64,000 bases of DNA from Octopus vulgaris (lineage: Eukaryota), in the NCBI GenBank assembly GCA_951406725.2, contig OX597815.1, positions 139,624,001 to 139,688,000 of the forward strand. Reading direction: 5' to 3'. The notes beneath the pieces were generated by a model. That model was given only the letters and a program-made list of their open reading frames with translations, was not told the DNA's origin and ran no database searches. Shown piece by piece: positions 1,625 through 43,887 of the stretch. Within the stretch, counting starts at the first letter, position 1; every line of letters begins with the position of its first letter. A program made the translations under genes and the position numbers.

Positions 1625-2436
1625 GTATAAGGGTGAAAAGGAACACACGAGTTGATATATATGAAAAAACAAGTAAAAAATAGAAAATGCTAAAATAATT
1701 TTATAGTGAACATTTCAGTACCGGTTTCGGTCATTTTGAGACCTTTTCAACTGTAACGATTAAATAATTAAATTTAGAAAAATTAGAAGAAAAGTTTTTT
1801 AAAACAATATTTCTATAGTAGTGTTCAGATTTAAGTGGCATTCTGCCTTTCTCTGACTCCCTTGTTTGCACTTGTGTGTTCGAGGTAGTTGTGAGTTCTT
1901 GGTAGGGTAGTAGAGGGAAGGCTGGTGAGGAAAGGGGGGTGGGAGAATCTGGGAGTGCCCAGTGGCGGCTGGCAGTCTCAGTTCAATTCAGGAGAATATT
2001 TATATCGACAGGCTTGTTTATAGAATTAGCGTAGGTGTTATACTAAAAAACATTAGTGACAAACTTAAGGGGTAGGGGGTGGAGAAGAAGAAGAAGAAGA
2101 AGAAGAAGAAGAAGAAGAAGAAGAAGGAGAAGGAGAAGGAGAAGATGATGGTGATGGTGGTGATGATTATGACGACGATGATGATGATAACGATGATGAT
2201 GAAGAAGAAGAAGAAGAAGAAGGAGGAGAAGGAGAAGAGAAAGGCAGAATGCCACTTAAATCTGAACACTACTATAGAAATATTGTTTTAAAAAAACTTT
2301 TCTTCTAATTTTTCTAAATTTAATTATTTAATCGTTACAGTTGAAAAGGTCTCAAAATGACCGAAACCGGTACTGAAATGTTCACTATAAAATTATTTTA
2401 GCATTTTCTATTTTTTACTTGTTTTTTCATATATAT
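1625..2436 (-). mobile_element. Truncated Penelope-like element with inverted pseudo-LTR pair
   Basis: 1655-1854 is the reverse complement of 2236-2436 apart from one homopolymer indel. The spacer reads KYSPELN* on the minus strand, like a PLE GIY-YIG C-terminus. Each arm carries an HHR-like motif and the element is flanked by (TA)n. Confidence 0.75.
2335..2378 (+). ncRNA. Minimal type I hammerhead ribozyme, U3-A8 variant (mirror copy 1713-1756 on minus)
   Basis: CAG-TTGAAAA-GGTC-tcaaaat-GACC-GAAA-CCGG-TA-CTG: stem I CAG/CTG, stem II GGTC/GACC, palindromic stem III ACCGGT, GUA cleavage triplet. Confidence 0.7.
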
Positions 2437-2457
2437 ATATATATATACATACATACA

Positions 2458-2489
<32 letters not shown>

Positions 2490-3611
2490 AAATGAGAACG
2501 AGAGACACTCACACACATACATATATACTATATCCAAAGAGAGGGCGAGGAAGAGAGGGAGGGAGAGAAAATGGGAAAGAGAGACAAATAGACATAGAGA
2601 AGAAACTTTATCAATTGATAGTGAATTCATTTGAGAACAACGTATTTTCTTTTGCTTCTGGTGTATTTATATTAACATTATTTAGAAAACAATTCATCAT
2701 CATCATCATCATCATCTTCTTCTTCCTCTTCATCTTCTTCCTCCTATTCTTCTTCTTCTTCTTCTTCTACTTCATTTTCTTTTTCGTCTACTTCTTTTTC
2801 TTCTATATCTACTTCTTCCTATTATTTTTGATGTTGCTTGCGATAGACATGTCTTTTAGGAGCTGCGTGCGATTTGAAAAAATTATCGGATTACTTTTAG
2901 AAATGTTGTTTTTTGTTTCTGTGTATTGTGAACCTGTTATGGAGAGGGGGGAGAAGTTTCTTTCGTGGTTTCTATCAGTTTTTTTAAGTCAGACTATTTG
3001 AAAAAAAAAAAAAAATGTAAGCATGGCATCCACTGTGGCAGCGGTGGGATACGCCACTGTAAGTTTAACACACATCAAAAAATAAGATAAGTAGAAGACA
3101 ATTAAGCATGCTAACACAGTCATTTATACTTTGAAGAAAAGTACACAGAAAAAACACAATTCCACAAACGAATACATTTGTAAACACAGATGTTGGTAAT
3201 AGCTAAAATTTTCACAACGCAAACAGTATCAAGGCAAGCTTTCTATTGTTACTAACCAGAGAATGGCATTAAGCAAGAGCTGTACCTCCAAAAGTTAAGA
3301 ATCTGGGAAAGGTGGATGATACTACCAAAGGAAAGTTAAGAGAGAAATGATGACGGATGATGCATAAATCATTAAGTAAGGCAGTTTTCCCTTTATGACT
3401 CGCTGAACCTTGCTCACTAATAAACACTTAGCGCATCCGTTTGCGTCTCGAAAATTGGGAGGTCTTTCGATATGCTCTTAAGGAAGCAATAAAAGGAAGC
3501 TGACAGATGTGATTTCCATTGACCGCAGCTGGTTTTCAAAACTGGGAATGGGAAAGAAAGCAGGCAGAGTTGTTGATGCGTCGTATGTCTCCCCAGACTA
3601 GATTTACAATA

Positions 3612-4012
3612 ATGGTTTCAAATGTTGGCACAAGGCCAGTAATTTTAGGGGAAGGAGTTCAGTCGATTACATCAACTCCAGTGCACGACTGATACTTATT
3701 TTATCGACCTCGAAATGATGAAGGGCAAAGTCGACCACGGCAGAAATTGAACTCAGAACGTAACGTGAGAAGAAATGCCACTATGCATTTTCTCCGGTCA
3801 GTTTGCCTCCAGTTGTATAATAATCATTTCTACTAAAGGCACAAGGCCTGAATTTTTGGGAAAGGTGTCTAGTCGATAACATCAACCCCAGTGTTTCTCT
3901 GGTACTTAATTTGACCCCGAAAGGATGAAAGGCAAGGTCGACCATGGTAGAACTTGAATTGAGAACGTAGCAACGGACGAAATGTCGCTAAGTATTTTGT
4001 CTGGCGTGCTGA
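3612..4012 (-). mobile_element. Two adjacent family B tRNA-derived SINE copies (Meta-domain-like core)
   Basis: Each carries the reverse complement of the GGTCGACTTTGCCTTTCATC...TAAGTACCAG core shared with 22409, 38243, 46174, 57668, 60185 and 61406. Confidence 0.75.
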
Positions 4013-4017
4013 CGACC

Positions 4018-4084
4018 AATAGCCTTGCCTCGACCAAAGCTTTGTGGGTTGATTTCGTAGACGAAAACTGAAAGAAGCCCATCG

Positions 4085-4116
<32 letters not shown>

Positions 4117-4123
4117 CACACAC

Positions 4124-4177
<54 letters not shown>

Positions 4178-4365
4178 CTGTGTTTGTGCCCCCCACCACC
4201 ACCACCACCATCGCGTTGTGTTTACATCCCCGTAACTTAGCGGTTCGGCAAAATAGACCTTAGCATAAGTACTAAACTTACGACGAATAAATCCTGGGGT
4301 CAATTTCGTTCGACTAAAGGCGGTGCTCCAACATAGCCGCAGTCAAATGACTGAAACAAGTAAGA
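4018..4365 (+). mobile_element. Family A SINE, 5'-truncated, with internal (TA)n(TG)n
   Basis: GAAACTGAAAGAAGCCC, then microsatellite, then CCCCGTAACTTAGCGGTTCGGC...GCCGCAGTCAAATGACTGAAACAAG, as in the other family A copies. Confidence 0.85.
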
Positions 4366-4384
4366 GCGGTCTCTTCTTGTGAAA

Positions 4385-4643
4385 CCAGTAACTTACGGGG
4401 ATGTAAATAAACCAACAGCAGTTATCAAGCTGTGATAAAACACAAAACACACACATACACTTACATATATACATATATATATACGGTTGACTTCTTTCAG
4501 TTTCTGTCTACCAAATCTACTCACAAGGCTGTGGCTGGTCTGAAGCTACAGAAAAAAGACACATGTCAAATTACACAGTTGGACTGAACCCAGGACCATG
4601 TGCTTTGGAGTTAAGTTTCTTTCCATGCAGCCACATCTGCACC
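4385..4643 (-). mobile_element. Family A SINE, diverged, inverted relative to the preceding copy
   Basis: Reverse complement of the family A head and body (CTTTCAGTTTCTGTCTACCAAATC, GTAACTTACGGGGATGTAAA). Confidence 0.75.
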
Positions 4644-4709
<66 letters not shown>

Positions 4710-4950
4710 TGTGTATGTATGTCTATGTATATATGTATGTATATGTCTATTCATATGTATATGTATAAATATATGTATGCATGTTTATATTTATATAGAG
4801 AGAGGTTGTATATATATATATATATATATACATCTATATATATACATATATTTACAAGCATATTACACTTATATATACACATATACATGTATAGATATAT
4901 TTATATATACATATATACATGTATAAACATATAAATATATATATATATAC

Positions 4951-5032
<82 letters not shown>

Positions 5033-5098
5033 ATATATATACACATATAAATATACATCTCTACATATACATGTATACTATACATCTATACATATACA

Positions 5099-5143
<45 letters not shown>

Positions 5144-5199
5144 TTCTGCAGATGTATATATATATATATATACATTATATATGTATGTATGTATGTGAG

Positions 5200-5420
5200 A
5201 TAGTAGTTTCACTTTAATAGTTTCAGTATTAATAGTGAAACTGTTAAACTGAATGTATTTCACATTACAATAGAGAAATGTTATTGTTTCACTTTTGACA
5301 CGTAATACTGAAATAGGGAAGAGATTGCTTTGGGCTCGTATTAGGCAAAAAGTTGAAAATTTGAATGCAGTCGGTTGTGTAGTTCAGACAGACACACATT
5401 CTCATCTTTATATATATAGA
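5200..5420 (-). mobile_element. Non-autonomous Helitron-like 5' fragment
   Basis: Reverse complement begins TCTATATATATAAAGATGAGAATGTGTGTCTGTCTG, matching 52173 and resembling the TC-start of 61910. Confidence 0.5.
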
Positions 5421-5426
5421 TATATA

Positions 5427-8023
5427 CAGAGTGTCGTGAATAAATAGTCGTCTAAATTACACAAAAACGAAAATAACACCGACATCTCATATTAACATAT
5501 ATTTACCAAAATTACATAAAAGTATCTTGAAATACTAAAGAGTGAATATATTCAATAAAATCGCCATTGGCTTCAACCACGGCCTCCAGACGACTTCGGA
5601 ATCTGTTGCAACTCTTCTGGACGGTCTCTTTGCTTAACAACCAGATTGCAACGTTGGTAGACTCAGCAGGCGTATCGATTGAGGACCCTTATCAACAGAG
5701 TCAATTATTTGCCGAGACTTTTTCAACTATTTTCAAACAAGATGATGGTCGTGAACCCCCTCCATTTGATAGATCGGTACCTCCAATGCTTCGATTGGTC
5801 ATCACGCGGGACGAAGTCAAACGTGTTATTCAAGGCCTCGATGTCAACAAGGGTCACGGCCCTGACGGTATACACCCACGGGTTATCAAAGCGTTGGCTC
5901 CGGTCATCTGCGAGCCCTTAACACGTCTATTCAATATGTCATTGGCGACGGGTGTTATACCTGCAGACTGGAGAACAGCGATAATCTGCCCAATTTTCAA
6001 GAAAGGGAGCCGCGAAGACCCGCTTAACTACTGACCGGTTTCCCTTACATCAATAATCAGCAAGATGTTCGAAACCATCCTTAAGAAAAGTATGATGCTC
6101 CACCTCCAAAACACAGCCTCTATCTCTGATTCCCAACACGGCTCCGTGCTGAAGAGATCATGCTTGACCAACTTACTGGTAATGGAAGAATTGGTGACGC
6201 GCATCCTCGATGATAGTGATGCTGTTGACATCGTTTTATTGGACTTTGCCAAAGCTTTTGACTCGGTAAACCACCGCCTATTACTTGTCAAGCTTCAAGC
6301 ATATAGTTTCCATCCGGATATTGTACAATGGGTTGGTGCCTTCCTCTCAGATCGCTCCTTCCAAATCCAAGTTAATGGTTCGCGGTCCGACGTCTCCAGT
6401 GCGAGCAGTGGCGTGCCTCAAGGTTCAGTGCTTGGGCCCTTATTGTTCTTAGTCTTCATAAATGACTTGCCCGACGACCTCACGCAACACACCCTTCTAT
6501 TTGCCGACGATGTCAAACTGGTCGCTCCTCGCGGTGATATAGAGGATCTTCGTCGATGCTTCCACCAAATTTGGAAGTGGTCTAACGATTGGGACCTGTG
6601 TCTGAACGTGTCAAAGTGCTGTCATCTGCCTGTCGGCTCTACTCCTGCAACTCAACTTGATTTCGAGCCGGGTCGTCTGCTGCTGGAGAGGACCGATCAG
6701 GTAAAGGACCTGGGTATCTTGGTGGGTTGCTCCTTTTCGCCTTCGGCCCAGTGCCTTCCATGCTGCCAACAAAGCACGCGGAATTCTGTTCTTGATTCGA
6801 CGGTCATTCGGAATGCTCGCAGCAGCCATATTCCTACCACTCTATGTCACGCTGGTGAGACCCATATTGGAGTACGGGATTCAAGCCTCTTCTCCTTATC
6901 TCCTCAAAGACATACAGCATATCGAAAGAGTCCAGAAGCTGGCTACCCGCATGGTTCATGGTCTCAAAAATTTGTCCTATGAAGAAAGGCTGAGGACGCT
7001 CGACCTTTATTCTCTAGAAAAACGCCGCCGCCGTGGTGATCTCATTCTCGCCCACAACATCATAAGCGGAAAGTGTAACCTCTCAAAAGAGCTGTTCTTC
7101 ACTCCTGCTCCAGAGCGTCGGCTGCGGGGTCATTCCGAAAAGCTCTACCTGCGACGATTTCATCTCAATCGAAGGAGAGGAGCTTTCTCCGTCCGGGTTG
7201 CGGATCCGTGGAACAAGCTGCCAGACGAGATGGTGAAGATGCCGACGACCGCTTTGTTCAAAGCCTCCCTTGACCTCAAGTGGCCTGAACTCTTTACATG
7301 AACACCACCCTGTACTTAACTCCATGTCCCCCTACATGGCCTTGCCATTTGCTTTTGAGCCAAATTAACTAACTAACTAACTAAGTTAGTGAATGCTGCC
7401 ATAATCCTTACCCTCAGTTCATTTTTGGTGTTACAAGGAGTTTTGTTGGTCTGTCACTAGCTGCACCCCAAACATAATAATCAAGGGGATTGCAGTCTAT
7501 GGAGTTCGGTGGCCAGATTATAGGGATGAAGTGGTCGCAGAAATTGTCTGACAGCCATCACAGGGTTCTCCTGCTTGTGTGGCATGTTGCAGAGTTAAGT
7601 CCTGTTGCCAGACATAGGATCTTCCTGCAGCCACCCTCTTGAACCAGGACAGCACTACTTCCTTCAGGCACTTGATGTAGGCTTCCGTGTTGAGTCTGAG
7701 GCATAACGTCACCATTACTAGTGATCACACCAGACACCATGATGTTGACTGGATGTTTGATTGTCATCACTCTCAGTACATGTCCTCAGATTGCACTGTT
7801 CTCAGATTGACTCTCAAACACTGAAACACTGAGCTTCCAGAGCGAATGTCAGGCAGTACAGCATGTCGTTTCCAAATTTCTGGCAGATTGAATTGCATCA
7901 TGGTGCTTTTCTTCTCACGGACGGTGCCCAACTGACCCTACTATACTATGCTATCAAAAAGAAACAATGCACATGTGCGAAATTAACATTATAAAATGGC
8001 GACAATTTACCCATCGCATCCTG
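5427..8023 (-). mobile_element. Tc1/mariner DD37D/maT-like transposon, decayed, interrupted by a LINE at 5638-7384
   Basis: Degenerate TIRs (CAGAGTGTCGTGAATAAATAGTCG and CGACAATTTACCCATCGCATCCTG), TA on the left flank. Minus-strand peptides KHPVNIMVSGVITSNGDVM, RSYVWQQD and WPPNSIDCNPLDYYVWG. The C-terminus resumes left of the LINE. Confidence 0.85.
5638..7384 (+). mobile_element. 5'-truncated CR1-group LINE; ORF2 reverse transcriptase pseudogene (one stop at 6032-6034, one frameshift near 6755)
   Basis: GPDGIHPRVIK, NY*PVSLTS, DFAKAFDSVNH, GVPQGSVLGPLLF, LLFADDVKL, LVRPILEY and WNKLP motifs; stop at 7301; short 3' UTR; (AACT)n tail. Confidence 0.95.
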
Positions 8024-8036
8024 TGTATACATACAC

Positions 8037-8114
<78 letters not shown>

Positions 8115-8435
8115 TCACATATATGACGGTCTTTTCCTCTCTCCGTCTAAAAAATTCGCTCACAAGGCATTAGTGAATCGAGGCTATAGTTGCAGAAACT
8201 TGCCCAACTATACACTGAACACGGAACTATGTGGTTGAGACGGAAACTTCTTGAAGGAGTTGGGTTCCGATTAGAGGCATGCGAAACTCGAAGTAGTACG
8301 GAACCAAATCAAACTGTTTTAATTAATGGTGCATGCACCTCCTACAAAACGTGTTGAGTACCCTTTTCTTTCGTTTGTCCATTCACTCGTACATACACAC
8401 ACACACATACACATACATACATATATATATATATT

Positions 8436-8590
8436 TAAAAAAGGAGATGTGGAACACGAGTTGTGATATATAAAAAAGGGAATGAAGAAAATGCTGACAA
8501 AATAATTTAAGTAATTTAAGTAATTTAATTAGGTGAAAGTTCTTTTTACCGGTTGCGCATTTGTTATGCTTATCAAAAGTTTTATCCTCT
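8436..8590 (-). mobile_element. PLE pseudo-LTR fragment related to 1625-1760, with degenerate U3-A8 HHR (8542-8579)
   Basis: Shares GGAACAC..GAGTTG..ATATAT with 1640-1660. Minus strand reads TTGATAA-GCAT-aacaa-ATGC-GCAA-CCGGTA. Flanked by (TA)n. Confidence 0.55.
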
Positions 8591-9301
8591 TATATATATA
8601 TATATATATATGCATGTGTTTATACATCCGTACATACATGCATATATACATACACACACACCCATAACGTATGTACATGTGTCCATAGTATATGTATGTA
8701 CGTGTATTGTGCGTATGCTGTGTGAGTATGTGAGTGTGTGTGTATGTGTGTATGTGTGTGCATGTGTGCGTAAGTGTGTGTGTGTATCTGTCTGTCTGCC
8801 TGTCTGTTTGAGCCGCTGTGTCCGTGCGTTGTACCTTGAAAGGATCATTTTGCAAGACAAAAGCATTGTTTATGTTTCACTAACAGTAATATCAGTCAGC
8901 TAATTAATTAATTGAATAATTAAGGGCTTGATCAATCGTTTGACTAATCAATCGGTTGACTCGTCTAAAGAAAAATTTAGAAAGGTCATTTTGTGGCAGA
9001 ACTAGAGCAGATGAGGGCACGACAGTGATAAAGTCACAGGTTGCGACGAAAGCACTTTCGCAAACCAACCGAATGATAAGATCAAACAATTGATAAAACT
9101 ATTGATTAGTTAATTAGTTAGCTATTTCACTGAAGATGCTAAAAAGAAATCAAATATTACCAGCTCATCTGCTTTATTTGTTTTATTTTATTTCGCAAAA
9201 TGACCCATGACCACCATAAGGTACAACAACATCATGCTTCAACATCCAATTTCTTGAATCTTGTAAAACATACACATGTATATACATATGTGCTTGTGTA
9301 C

Positions 9302-11399: not shown

Positions 11400-11962
11400 T
11401 GGAGTGGCTGTGTGGTAAGAAGCTTGCATACCAGCCACATGGTTCCGGTTTCAGTCCCACAGCGTGGCACGTTGGTCATGTGTCTTTTACTATAGCCTCG
11501 GGCCGACCAAAGCCTTGTGAGTGGATTTGGTAGACGGAAACTGAAAGAAGCCTGTCGTATATGTGTGTGTGTGTGTGTTTGTGTGTATGTGTTTGTCCCC
11601 CCACCCAACATCGCTTGACAACCGATTCTGGTGTGCTTACGTCCCTGTAACTTAGCGGTTCGGCAAAATAGAGCGATAGGATAAGTACTAGGCTTACAGA
11701 GAATAAGTCCTGGGATCGATTTTCTCGATTTCCAGCAAGGTCGCAGTGAAATGACTGAAACAAATAAATGAATAAAAGAAAATATATATAAAGGTGCAGT
11801 TGTCGCTTTGTGGTAAGAAGCTTGCTTCCCAACCACATGGTTTGGTTCCGGGTTCAGTCCCACTGCGTAGCACCTTGGCAAGTGTCTTCTGCTATAGCCT
11901 CGGGCCGACCACAGCCTTTTGAGTGGATTTGGCAGACGGAAACTGCAAAGAAGCCCGTCGTG

Positions 11963-12027
<65 letters not shown>

Positions 12028-12225
12028 TTTTGTGTCTTTGTTTGTCCCCCACCATCGTTTGACAACCGATTTTGGTGTGTTTACTTCCCCGTAACATAGC
12101 GGTTCACCAATAAGAGACCAATAGAATAAGTACTAGGCTTACAAAGAATAAGTCCCGGAGTCGAATTGGTCGACTAAAGGTGTTGTTCCAACATGACCGC
12201 AGTCAAATGACTGAAACAAGTAAAT
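11400..12225 (+). mobile_element. Two tandem family A SINEs (11400-11780 and 11792-12225)
   Basis: Two complete head-core-microsatellite-tail units. Confidence 0.88.
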
Positions 12226-12276
12226 GATTATGTATGTGTATGTTTGTGTGTGTGTGTATAAAATACATTATACATA

Positions 12277-13616: not shown

Positions 13617-14013
13617 ACGCGCAGTTAATAATTTTTTTATAAACATAATACAAAACTATAACTAGGTTCGGACACTCACCCCGTATTTTATGGCAAACAA
13701 TAAATAATTACTCTTATCCACAAAAGAAGAGTAAATCGTTCCACGAGATGAAATCAGCAAGAACACGATATCTCGAGTGTTAGAAAAATTAATTTGTTAA
13801 TGACACAAAAAAGGCAAACCTTATTCAGAATCAGGAATCAAAAAAAATCCGTTCATCGGTATTTCTGACAATAAACACTTTTTGACTATTGCTCGGATTT
13901 GTAACCTACCCACTTGGTATAACAATTCCACTGAACAACTGATAGGTTTCATCCTCATTCATTTGTATGAAGTTGCACAGTACAAAACATTTAAACGTTA
14001 TTCTGCGGCGAAG

Positions 14014-14211
14014 ATCTTTATCTTTATCTTTATCTAGTTTCAGCTCACGAGCTGTGGCCATGCTGGGGCACCGCCATTTAAATAATGTGCTATGCTTACT
14101 GCACCTAGGTTTCCCAAGCGGTCACCCATCTAAGTACTGACTAGGCTCAACGTTACTTAACTTCGGTGATCAGACGAGAACCGGTGCTTTCAACGTGATA
14201 TGGCCGTAAGA
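14014..14211 (-). mobile_element. Candidate 5S-derived SINE (SINE3-type) with family A 3' tail
   Basis: 5S head, about 17 nt linker, then GGCGGTGCCCCAGCATGGCCACAG-hairpin-AAACTAG and (ATAAAG)3. Confidence 0.7.
14093..14211 (-). rRNA. Full-length 5S rRNA-derived sequence (about 119 nt), probably the head of a retroposed SINE-like element rather than a functional 5S gene
   Basis: Minus strand CTTACGGCCATATCACGTTGAAAGCACCGGTTCTCGTCTGATCACCGAAGTTAAG...GTACTTAGATGGGTGACCGCTTGGGAAACCTAGGTGCAGTAAGC. Box A and box C are recognisable; there is no oligo-T terminator. Confidence 0.92.
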
Positions 14212-14996
14212 TATCTATCTCTCGTGTGCTTTCGTCTATTTTATTGCACTTCATATACATGTGCATCTGTTATTTATGCATAACTTTGAAAGACTTAACA
14301 CAAACTTTAGTCTATTAATAATATATTGCCCATAAGTTGTGCTGAAGGAATATAAAGATATTAAAACGGGTATTTGCCAGTCATAGAGAAGATAAAATGA
14401 ATTTTTGGTAAGTGCAGGTAAAGCCATTTGCTTAAAATGTTCAATTCATAGCCATATAGTTTTGGGTCTCATTTTACTGTGCGATACCTTGGGCAAGTGT
14501 ATTCAACTACTGTGCCGAGTTGACCAATCCCTTGTAAGAAGAACTGGTAGACGGAAACTTCATGGAGACCCCTCGCATATGTTTGTGTTGTGTGCGAGTG
14601 TTTAACCTTCTGTAACGTCTTCGCACGAAATCGGTCGACTAAATCGGTGACAAGACGCTGACAAAACTCACTGTAGCTCAGCACTTTCGGAGACAACTGA
14701 GGGAAAATGTCCCGTATGTGAAAAACGGTTACGGGTTAACGACAGAAAAAGCATCCGGCAATTTGTCAATACCTCAACAATATGCTTTTCGTCAAACACA
14801 TGTTTGTAAGAAAACACGAACGTTAAACAAATAAACGAACTTAACTTGAACCAGATTTGAATCTTCACTCTTTATTTAACCTGGAGAATAATGATCTTTA
14901 TAAAACAGTACAAAATAATAAACTTTAACTGTCTTTTCGATATATATACACACACAGACACACAGACAGACACACACACACACACACACACGCACG

Positions 14997-41399: not shown

Positions 41400-42248
41400 G
41401 ATCAGTGCAAACAGCCTTCGAATGTCGTATAGCACTTGTTAAACAACAGCAGCAAAAATGAATACACTAACTTAGTAATGAAAAGCGAAGTGAACAATAG
41501 CTGTCATGTCAGCAGCGGGCTTATCGGGAAGCACTCTCTTCCTGATGACGTTCCACACAATCCCAAAACAACCGGAGTAACACACCTCAAAGAGAACCTG
41601 GATGTGAAACGCTCAGCACACCACCAAAAAAAAAGAACATGCATGGGTACGTTTCCGAAGACTTGGAGACAGTAATATTGACGTGATTCGTAACCGCTAC
41701 ATCACATTACACTTCAAAGGCTATGCATTTGCAATCGAAAAACAAGAGATTGCTACTAAATACCTAACAGACAAAAGAGACAGTTAAGTTATTAGAGTTC
41801 CATGATGCAATCGAAAGTGTAGATTATGTCATATTTCTGTGCGAAACATCATATATGTGATTAACAGCTGCCCAAAGATGTCTTCCCTATGCGACATAAC
41901 GTTGTCGCAAAAATAATATTCAATGTCATTCGGAAAAAAAGACTGCTCTGTAATATATATATAGAGAGAATATCCTAGTTATTGAATATGTGCACAAAGA
42001 TCAACACAAGGAATGCCAGTGGAACATTCCTGTCAAAACATCTGTCAAGTGTAAACGTAAAATGCCGGGTATTGATATTTGGGTCAGACAATAAAAGTGT
42101 GTACCACCATAGAGGTCAGCGGTCCTGCTGACGTGAATATCTCTGAAAGTCAAAGAGAAAGAGGGTAAATATCGACAACTGATTCGAAACTTCCAGCTTC
42201 TATACCCGGATTACAAGTTTACGTTTATACGAACAATAATTAGAGTAC
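41400..42248 (+). mobile_element. Decayed R4/Dong-like non-LTR element, C-terminal zinc knuckle and restriction-like endonuclease
   Basis: GYAFAIEKQEIATKYL, KCRLCH...SCPKM, MRHNVVAK, IEVSGPAD and KEKEGKYRQL; cut at 42249 by the Penelope insertion. Confidence 0.75.
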
Positions 42249-43887
42249 AGTTCTATATTTAAGAGATGAGGAATTATGTACATTATTTACATTGTTTACA
42301 TTCGGCGGATATTTGTCCAGCGACAAGGGAAATGCTATAGTGGTGATGAACAAGTCTGACTACTCTGAAAAATTGGCAAGTCTTATAAGTGATGGTAGCT
42401 ACAGCAAAGAAAAGAAAGACCCAACTCTGAAAACAGAAAGGAAGTTGTCACAGATCTTGATCAAGAACAAGGATCACTTTACACCAATGAAGTACAGACA
42501 ACTGACTCAACACCACAGTAAACTACCAAACATATACGGCCTCCCTAAGATTCACAAGGATGGTATTCCATTAAGACATATAGTGAGCTGTAGAGGTTCA
42601 GTATATCATCCACTGAGCTGCTTCCTTGTGGATATTATCAGTCCATTGGCAGGGAAGTCAACATTGTACGTGAAGAATTCCACCCACTTCCCACAATTGA
42701 TTCCAACAAAATGGTGAGTGTAGATGTGATAAGTTTGTTCACCAAAGTCCCAACTGGTGAAGCACTATTGGTGAAACAAGAAAAACTAGTGACAGACACC
42801 CATCTAAAAGAACACACTAGTTTGCCAATAAGAAACTTGATGGAAATGTTGACCTTCTGTGTAAAAACTACCTACTTCAGTATGGACACTGATATATATC
42901 GACAAGAGGAGGGTTTTATCTATGGGTTCACCATTATCACCGGTAATATCCAATATATACATGGAATACTTTGAGAATTTGGCTTTAGGATCAACACCAC
43001 AATCTGTTTAAGCAACAACTACCCCAAAATTATGAAGAAGAGAGAGAATGAGGCCAATAAACTGTCCATAGTATGTCTACCCTATGTGGAAGGCCTCTCT
43101 GAAAAAATATAAAGCATATGCGGCCCATATGACATCAGGACAGTATTCAAGAGTAATACAACACTTCGCAAATATCTCTTTCGAGTAAAACCACCAATAG
43201 AAGAGAATATAACCAAAGACTGCGTGTACTCCATCCCGTGCAGCTGTGGTAAGTTATACAAAGGCGAAACATGTCGCCCCTCAAAATAAGGGTAGAGGAA
43301 CATCGCAAAACTGTGAAACAATGAGATATTGATAAATCGGGTATTGCTGATCATGTATGGAAAAATGGAGACCACCTCCCCCTGTGGGATGAAGTTAAAA
43401 TAATAGACAGAGAACACCACTGGAAAATAAGATGACTAAAAGAAGCAGCACATATGCTAGGACGAAACAACCTCCTAAGCAGACCGAGTGCAGATATGAG
43501 CAGCATATGGGAACCGGTATTAAAGAAGGATAGAAAAATATTAGATTTATAAGCCTTAAAATTTACTCCTTAATTGCCCATGGGCAAATGGCGTAGTGGT
43601 TAAGAGCGCGGGCTACTAACCCCAAGATTCTGAGTCCGATTTCTGAACAACAACAATAATAACAACAACAACAACAACAACATCTGTTGAAGAAGGCTGG
43701 AGTGGATAATATACTTTTGGGGTAGTTGTTGCTTAACAGATCGTTATTGAGTGTTATCATTTCTTCGTGGTGTGTATCACGATCGCTACTTATATTCATC
43801 CTGAAGAAGGCTGGAGGCTATATCAGCCGAAATGTTGTGTTAACAACAAACAAGTTGAGGACAAATATCCTTCGAATGTAAATAATT
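42249..43887 (+). mobile_element. Penelope/Poseidon-type retroelement, rearranged RT plus GIY-YIG pseudogene
   Basis: SDKGNAIVVM, YGLPKIHKDGIPLRHIVS, MVSVDVISLFTKVP, MGSPLSPVISNIYMEYFE and CVYSIPCSCGKLYKGET motifs. Inverted partial pLTR at 42249-42318; 3' pLTR with HHR at 43797-43841; YVDD region deleted. Confidence 0.93.
43582..43645 (+). promoter_or_regulatory. tRNA-like Pol III cassette inside the Penelope 3' region (second copy 33020-33084 minus)
   Basis: TGGCGTAGTGG box A, GGG-CTACTAA-CCC anticodon-like arm, GAGTCCGAT/GAGTTCGAG box B-like sequence. Confidence 0.65.

Follow-up and report, generated by a model that had tools for sequence, protein, structure and literature searches.

A 198-nt unit in which a complete 5S rRNA sequence runs into a retroelement tail raises the question of whether this locus of the Octopus vulgaris genome belongs to a 5S-derived SINE family, as the initial annotation proposed, or was left behind by an event of another kind. 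We addressed this question within the window, i.e. the whole stretch of 64,000 nucleotides analyzed here, and with contigs assembled from public sequencing runs.

Anatomy of the 198-nt unit

The element lies on the minus strand and reads from 14211 to 14014 as 5S, spacer and tail (Table 1). The 5S part aligned to positions 1-120 of 120 of the Rfam model RF00001 with 104 bits (gathering score 38, E 1.1e-21), in agreement with the annotated complete 5S, and was the only match of the Rfam scan in the 64-kb window. Of the internal promoter of 5S genes, it has box A (+50-64), box C (+80-97) and, between them, the intermediate element (+67-72). When the 5S part was folded freely, the outcome was uninformative (z -0.28), and the ARAGORN scan of the 64-kb window found no tRNA. 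Counted up to the tail motif, which begins at 14075, the spacer is 17 nt long (14076-14092), and the tail folds into hairpin 1 (14076-14055) and hairpin 2 (14054-14041), with a terminal (ATAAAG)3 plus AT at 14033-14014; the annotated order of a gap of about 17 nt, the tail motif and (ATAAAG)n ending at 14014 was therefore recovered. The annotated lack of a T-run terminator also held: the sense strand of the element has no run of four or more T, and the first T4 lies 27 nt past the end of the element and 106 nt past the end of the 5S.

Table 1. Features of the 5S-tail element and its borders (window coordinates)
Feature	Position	Strand	Basis or remark
Full-length 5S rRNA copy	14093..14211	-	Rfam RF00001 match, variant comparison with contigs
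Spacer, likely 3' trailer of a minor 5S gene class (13 nt)	14080..14092	-	In-register likeness to a loose-end consensus
Retroelement 3' tail	14014..14079	-	Folds, alignment, contig depth
First T4 downstream, predicted Pol III stop if the copy is transcribed (RNA of about 225 nt)	13984..13987	-	Sequence only
Candidate target-site duplication, left copy, overlapping the first 4 nt of the 5S	14208..14220	-	Weak 13-nt imperfect repeat
Candidate target-site duplication, right copy, overlapping the terminal tail repeat	14011..14023	-	Same 13-nt imperfect repeat

The copy is solitary, and it shows neither the tandem arrangement nor the T-run terminator right after the gene that mark functional 5S rDNA. 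A tandem 5S rDNA array, which the initial annotation had set beforehand as a reason to give up the SINE reading, is refuted here by the single 5S in 64 kb and the single-copy flanks; in BLAST, both flanks were unique within the window except for a worn fragment of the tRNA-SINE family A at 14485-14601. With regard to the SINE3 definition of SINEBase, the full-length Rfam match of the head lies above the required 60% identity to 5S across 60 nt, and the element is short (198 nt, limit <1 kb), interspersed and not tandem (one 5S in the window, single-copy flanks). The arrangement is also that of a small-RNA/LINE chimera, in which a full-length small RNA in sense orientation is followed immediately by the truncated 3' end of a retroelement.

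The window contains further repeats. An inverted repeat with 150-nt arms at 1655-1804 and 2287-2436, which are separated by 482 nt and complementary at 99%, is a possible young MITE-like element, and two inverted dispersed repeat pairs were found at 33027-33473/43193-43639 (447 nt, 92%) and 46174-46403/60190-60419 (230 nt, 93%). On the plus strand, 42244-42974 carries a pair of overlapping frames, protein-like on visual inspection and perhaps from a worn retroelement, with no Pfam match.

Sources of the tail, the spacer and the 5S part

The initial annotation had assigned the tail to family A. Further tail copies are indeed numerous in the window, with eight found by motif scan and two degenerate family A copies (11401-12228) added by BLAST; the latter two stand head to tail, a few bases apart, at 11400-12228 on the plus strand. 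BLAST of the element against three family A copies matched the tail only, confirming the annotated absence of the family A core and internal microsatellite and adding that of the head. The tail is homologous to that of family A (79% identity over 61 nt to the best copy), but it is not family A's own variant: two paired positions and the loop of hairpin 2 differ, those of the other tail copies that keep hairpin 2 have one common version, and the version of the element occurs once in the window even when four mismatches are allowed. The element thus lacks the head, core, microsatellite and tail variant of family A. The two compensatory pairs in the hairpins, both resting on the element alone, were not significant as covariation (59/500 shuffles). 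Family A itself probably corresponds to the octopus tRNA-CORE SINEs OR1/OR2, reportedly described by Ohshima and Okada in 1994.

To place the parts of the element in the wider genome, contigs of 4 of 24 public runs (X3, X4, X6 and X12; X4 read to about 76%) were placed on 13855-14364, and the summed depth of overlapping contigs, which is not a copy number, was expressed in units of the flank depth. Central bins of the tail reached a summed depth of 0.9-3.7 million compared with 7-36 in the flanks, and no tail variant of at least 5% was listed in 14014-14078 in the contigs of the four runs; therefore, the tail version of the element is the one that prevails in another abundant repeat class. Loose contig ends pile up at 14078/14079, where the abundant tail classes diverge upstream. 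The class with a tail identical to that of the element, which is absent elsewhere in the window, has at least two upstream types, one of which sits behind (TA)n and joins at 14084; it ends in A-rich or short (4-nt) repeats, with loose ends also at 14029-14036.

From its structure and its sharing among repeats, we infer that the tail is a LINE-type 3' end. That the element and family A depend on the same partner LINE, as proposed, is suggested by the shared hairpins only; the tail is that of another abundant class, and no LINE bearing this 3' end was found in the window, the searched contig collections or the searched papers and supplements. The only Pfam-confirmed reverse transcriptase fragment of the window (6035-6979) was rejected as the partner since its end differs; it overlaps a broken LINE fragment at 5546-7385 on the plus strand (RVT_1 E 1.8e-27) with interrupted frames and a short 4-nt tandem repeat at its end. 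Pattern scans for the junction and the tail in metagenome contigs and for the tail in viral and prokaryote contigs, collections that are not expected to contain the host, gave no match. In papers and their supplements, a search to which Repbase and Dfam were external, the tail motif was not found as a retroelement sequence, and the matches were unrelated (one in a mouse paper).

Pol III precursor RNAs end in a short U run, and 5S precursors carry a 3' trailer. In run X6, 35 contigs stop matching at 14092 and continue with a shared consensus (agreement 0.44), which by eye resembles the spacer in register at 8/10 positions of 14089-14080, with 14090 and 14091 both unlike. The binomial probability of this match is 0.0004-0.005, for a window picked after looking and a single low-agreement consensus. 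The consensus has a run of five T at 14084-14080 (sense), which an A at 14083 breaks in the element, and alternative letters of the consensus also occur in the variant table at 14091, 14085 and 14083. This T-run ends at 14080, and the tail class starts at 14079. The spacer is therefore probably the 3' trailer of a 5S gene with a broken T-run rather than a SINE body; as the trailer matches in register and the T-run ends exactly at the start of the tail, the element would have no independent body. The unit would then read 5S, trailer, three T and tail, probably as left by a primary Pol III transcript joined via its U-rich end.

Compared with the majority 5S letter of the contigs, the 5S copy has six differences (+40, +57, +61, +63, +73 and +112), three of which (+57, +61 and +63) are inside box A. 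Several of the six are common to 3-36% of the 5S depth and the tail has no private change, so that most of the 5S differences would already have been present in the template, which was probably a minor 5S class carrying most of them. Over 14093-14211, 5S-like depth is about 10^4 flank units, and many of the copies are diverged (85-88% alike), lie within long contigs of unique sequence and have mixed 5' flanks. Such dispersed copies are common, as 54 and 38 contigs have loose ends at 14210 (agreement 0.40-0.45). At least 98% of the 5S-like depth stops before the spacer (in X3, about 123,000 at 14120 compared with 1,945 at 14093), and a 5S-derived family with another body could hide there. Damaged 5S copies were also present, one with a 49-nt internal gap (X4, X6 and X12) and one with a short insertion (all four runs), and X4 and X6 each gave one contig with two 5S pieces.

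Copy number of the junction and age of the insertion

Depth in the middle of the spacer (14086) was 237 (X3), 1,139 (X4), 1,718 (X6) and 118 (X12), and the junction reached 14-20, 32-35, 51-82 and 17 flank units in the same runs. On this scale, where the 5S stands at about 10^4 and the tail at about 10^5, the depth of the junction falls short of that of the 5S part by a factor of 274-660 and of that of the tail by a factor of 2,172-9,300. The depth matching the window was flat over 14083-14086 in all four runs (11-120 flank units), and the depth at the rare 5S variant +57 (420, 1,136, 1,872 and 149) was near that of the spacer at 14085 (231, 1,284, 1,587 and 120).

These values were read against plain unitigs simulated, with two seeds for each setting, on a background of 800 5S copies and 1,500 tails, a rough model without bubble removal whose background is probably smaller than that of the real genome. 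The simulation gave 5-8 flank units for 1 copy, 13-14 for 3, 13-22 for 5, 37-49 for 10, 47-100 for 20, 384-396 for 50 and 1,038-1,067 for 100 copies, while one chimera with 5-20 tail-less trailer copies gave 19-54. Under this model, the observed depth corresponds to roughly 1-20 copies of the junction: it could come from about 3-20 true junctions, from a single chimera together with 5S copies that bear the trailer, or from a single chimera and chance extension out of a background larger than the simulated one. A number of 100 copies would not fit, unless over nine tenths of the depth were concealed by assembly. The anatomical side of the annotated 5S-derived SINE stands (a 5S head that passes without a terminator into a LINE-type tail with a short repeat at its end, probably as one unit), but its copy number does not follow, and a single-copy junction, which the initial annotation had named as evidence against itself, may also fit the depth data. 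The element probably falls below the 100 copies that SINEBase asks of a SINE.

Among 32 pieces listed, with 18,247 further pieces beyond those, none crossed from the 5S into the tail, and in simulation 20 copies diverged by 6% yielded 1-7 pieces at least 120 nt long; this lack excludes little for a young family and argues against an older one. The contigs of the four runs had no joint row linking the tail to 5S via a different spacer, and the 64-kb window has no second copy of the junction. The fusion of 5S and tail is likely to occur in one or a few copies.

No empty site was found among the contigs of the four runs, and flank contigs ran into the element from both sides in X3, X4 and X6 and from the 5' flank in X12. 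Over 369 positions of the flank pieces, X4 and X6 diverge from the window at 8/369 and X3 at 1. As the element is present in runs differing at 8/369 positions, the insertion would predate a split of about 2%. A 13-nt direct repeat, 11/13 alike, brackets the whole unit (Table 1) and is suggestive of a target-site duplication around both parts; random sites equaled or beat it in 2,347/20,000 trials and in 332/12,063 outside microsatellites (2.8-11.7%). An exact duplication of 5 nt was put down to chance (17,924/200,000 random sites). RTE elements are described as leaving a duplication of 7-15 bp that starts with T about 10 nt behind a T-stretch (accessible part of PMC6007223), and visual inspection of the sense strand at this one site did not reveal this signature. 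Of the words of 13640-14390, a fraction of 0.17-0.36 occurs in six runs that are presumably RNA, which is near the share of the element (about 0.23) and no evidence of expression; in three other runs under the same species label the fraction is 0.00.

Origin of the element and comparison with known systems

The element is probably a chimeric retrocopy of a pre-5S RNA and a LINE/SINE 3' end, similar to U6/L1 chimeras, that became fixed in two lineages about 2% apart. In the event that we envisage, the LINE enzyme would prime on the terminal repeat of the tail at a target resembling that repeat and copy the two-hairpin tail, the last 66 bases of the LINE/SINE RNA. It would then switch to an untrimmed 5S transcript at its U-rich 3' end, or continue onto such a transcript if the two RNAs were pre-ligated, and copy to the 5' end. 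Because only three T of the terminator would be carried over, no Pol III stop would stand before the tail, and without a terminator the product would have the layout of a minimal SINE at birth. A chimeric origin accounts for a full-length sense 5S directly 5' of a tail that is cut where the tail classes diverge (14078/14079), for a spacer that matches the 5S trailer in register with a T-run ending where the tail begins, and for an imperfect 13-nt repeat that encloses the whole unit. It also agrees with a junction depth (14-82 flank units) near the low-copy simulations and with the lack of crossing pieces among the 32 listed and of joint rows with another spacer. Since dispersed 5S copies with mixed flanks are common, by-product chimeras are to be expected.

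Several observations sit less easily with a chimeric retrocopy. First, the flat spacer depth (11-120 flank units) exceeds that of one locus and also fits 3-20 true junctions. Second, the depth at +57 tracks the spacer depth across runs as it would in a subfamily, although background mutation could have the same effect. Third, six changes in the 5S against no private change in the tail suggest a variant source locus. At last, the duplication is weak (p about 0.03-0.12), and the trailer comparison uses one low-agreement consensus and a window chosen post hoc. In a second reading, possible though rather unlikely, the element, or a master locus like it, is a low-copy 5S proto-SINE that lost its terminator, is read through the tail by Pol III and has about 5-50 dispersed copies made via the LINE partner of its tail. 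Stated as a lineage, the corresponding claim of a body-less 5S SINE near its birth, whose read-through master gave rise to tens of copies across a few related lineages, is held just as tentatively. The flat spacer depth in all four runs, which fits 3-20 copies, the similar depth at +57, the broken T-run and the intact tail hairpins would all suit it, but in simulation tail-less 5S-trailer copies or chance extension give the same plateau, three of the changes fall in box A, and none of the 32 listed pieces (18,247 more lie beyond those) crosses the junction, where 20 copies at 6% gave 1-7 pieces. In the accessible part of PMC3272025, HaSE3 is a low-abundance 5S SINE with a tail in common with a tRNA SINE, and type-1 promoters are said to need upstream signals.

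That two events produced the unit, a dispersed 5S pseudogene being hit later by a 5'-truncated LINE/SINE in its T-rich terminator, appears improbable. The 5S and the tail are each abundant alone, the join lies at a T/A-rich stretch, the six differences in the 5S against none in the tail would make the 5S look older, and the bracketing repeat is statistically weak. Against this, the trailer is not duplicated behind the tail, and 5S and tail lie together inside the only boundary repeat. By eye, the 3' flank is unlike the sequence behind other 5S trailers, and the runs covering the flanks all show both ends in place. A full SINE3 family with at least 100 copies of this structure, the original proposal, is very improbable, for although the anatomy fits and contig assembly, which collapses young repeats, may hide depth, the observed 14-82 flank units fall short of what the simulation gave for 100 copies (about 1,050) and for 50 (384-396), at least 98% of the X3 5S depth ends before the spacer, and the window has no second copy.

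Taken as a chimeric retrocopy, the element is most likely an inert chimeric pseudogene. A lone chimera matters little in itself; it would extend a known LINE by-product to an invertebrate LINE/SINE tail and exemplify how the SINE3 layout can arise in one step. If siblings exist, they would allow a test, within one genome, of why 5S-headed SINEs rarely spread compared with the successful tRNA head on homologous tails, and a young family, if real, would be the first cephalopod SINE3 in the searched literature and the simplest possible one, consisting of gene, trailer and tail. The locus may also hint at what underlies the high numbers of 5S loci counted in assemblies of cephalopods.

U6/LINE-1 and 5S/LINE-1 chimeric retrogenes were reportedly described by Buzdin et al. 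Like the U6/LINE-1 chimeras, the octopus element joins a full-length sense Pol III RNA to the 3' end of a 5'-truncated retroelement, probably as a single insertion; unlike both kinds, it has an invertebrate host and a two-hairpin tail with a short tandem repeat instead of an L1 poly(A). In the accessible part of 10.1101/2025.02.02.635956, U6/L1 chimeras of like geometry, full-length and sense, are attributed to template switch or RNA ligation and do not propagate, and human 5S/L1 chimeras are mostly antisense and truncated, which counts against the parallel, the octopus 5S being sense, full-length and seemingly accompanied by its trailer.

Octopus SINEs have been described as tRNA-Core and tRNA-Deu (PMC8967140, in part). 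By way of the family A copies of the window, and not of the published consensus, the tRNA-CORE SINEs share a homologous two-hairpin tail with the element, differ in the hairpin 2 variant, and have the tRNA head, core and microsatellite that it lacks. The accessible parts of PMC4824008, PMC4758252, PMC6472339 and PMC12988792 make no mention of a 5S SINE of octopus, and the literature searched, to which most subscription papers, Repbase and Dfam were external, contained no cephalopod SINE3 in the parts accessible. In giant squid, about 24,000 5S-derived loci were left as 'likely SINEs' (PMC6962438, in part).

Reports of SINE3 families concern vertebrates and some insects (accessible parts of PMC7245038, PMC5786205, PMC3747384 and PMC10886601). 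Zebrafish SINE3/AmnSINE1, OS-SINE1, Ped-1, CoeSINE5, SINE-1_Pmo and SINE3-1_TC resemble the element in their 5S head with type-1 boxes, lack of a terminator and LINE-type 3' end; unlike it, they are multi-copy, and several have Deu or RTE 5'-UTR bodies (PMC7245038, PMC3747384 and PMC5786205, in part). The SINE definition of SINEBase, as far as the accessible text of PMC3531059 gives it, includes the 100-copy threshold, so that the element is built like a SINE3 in head and interspersion and probably not in copy number. A SINE3 would further have a body, or diagnostic changes common to its copies and foreign to the cellular gene, where the element offers a trailer-like spacer and six differences from the majority 5S. 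Among the SINE3 families compared, HaSE3 of Helicoverpa is the nearest in origin (PMC3272025, in part): it likewise combines a 5S head with the 3' end of the dominant tRNA SINE, has a proposed template-switch origin and is of low abundance, whereas its 349 nt include a body and an RTE-derived part, and its 16 cloned copies have relatives in several moths (accessible parts of PMC3272025 and PMC5786205).
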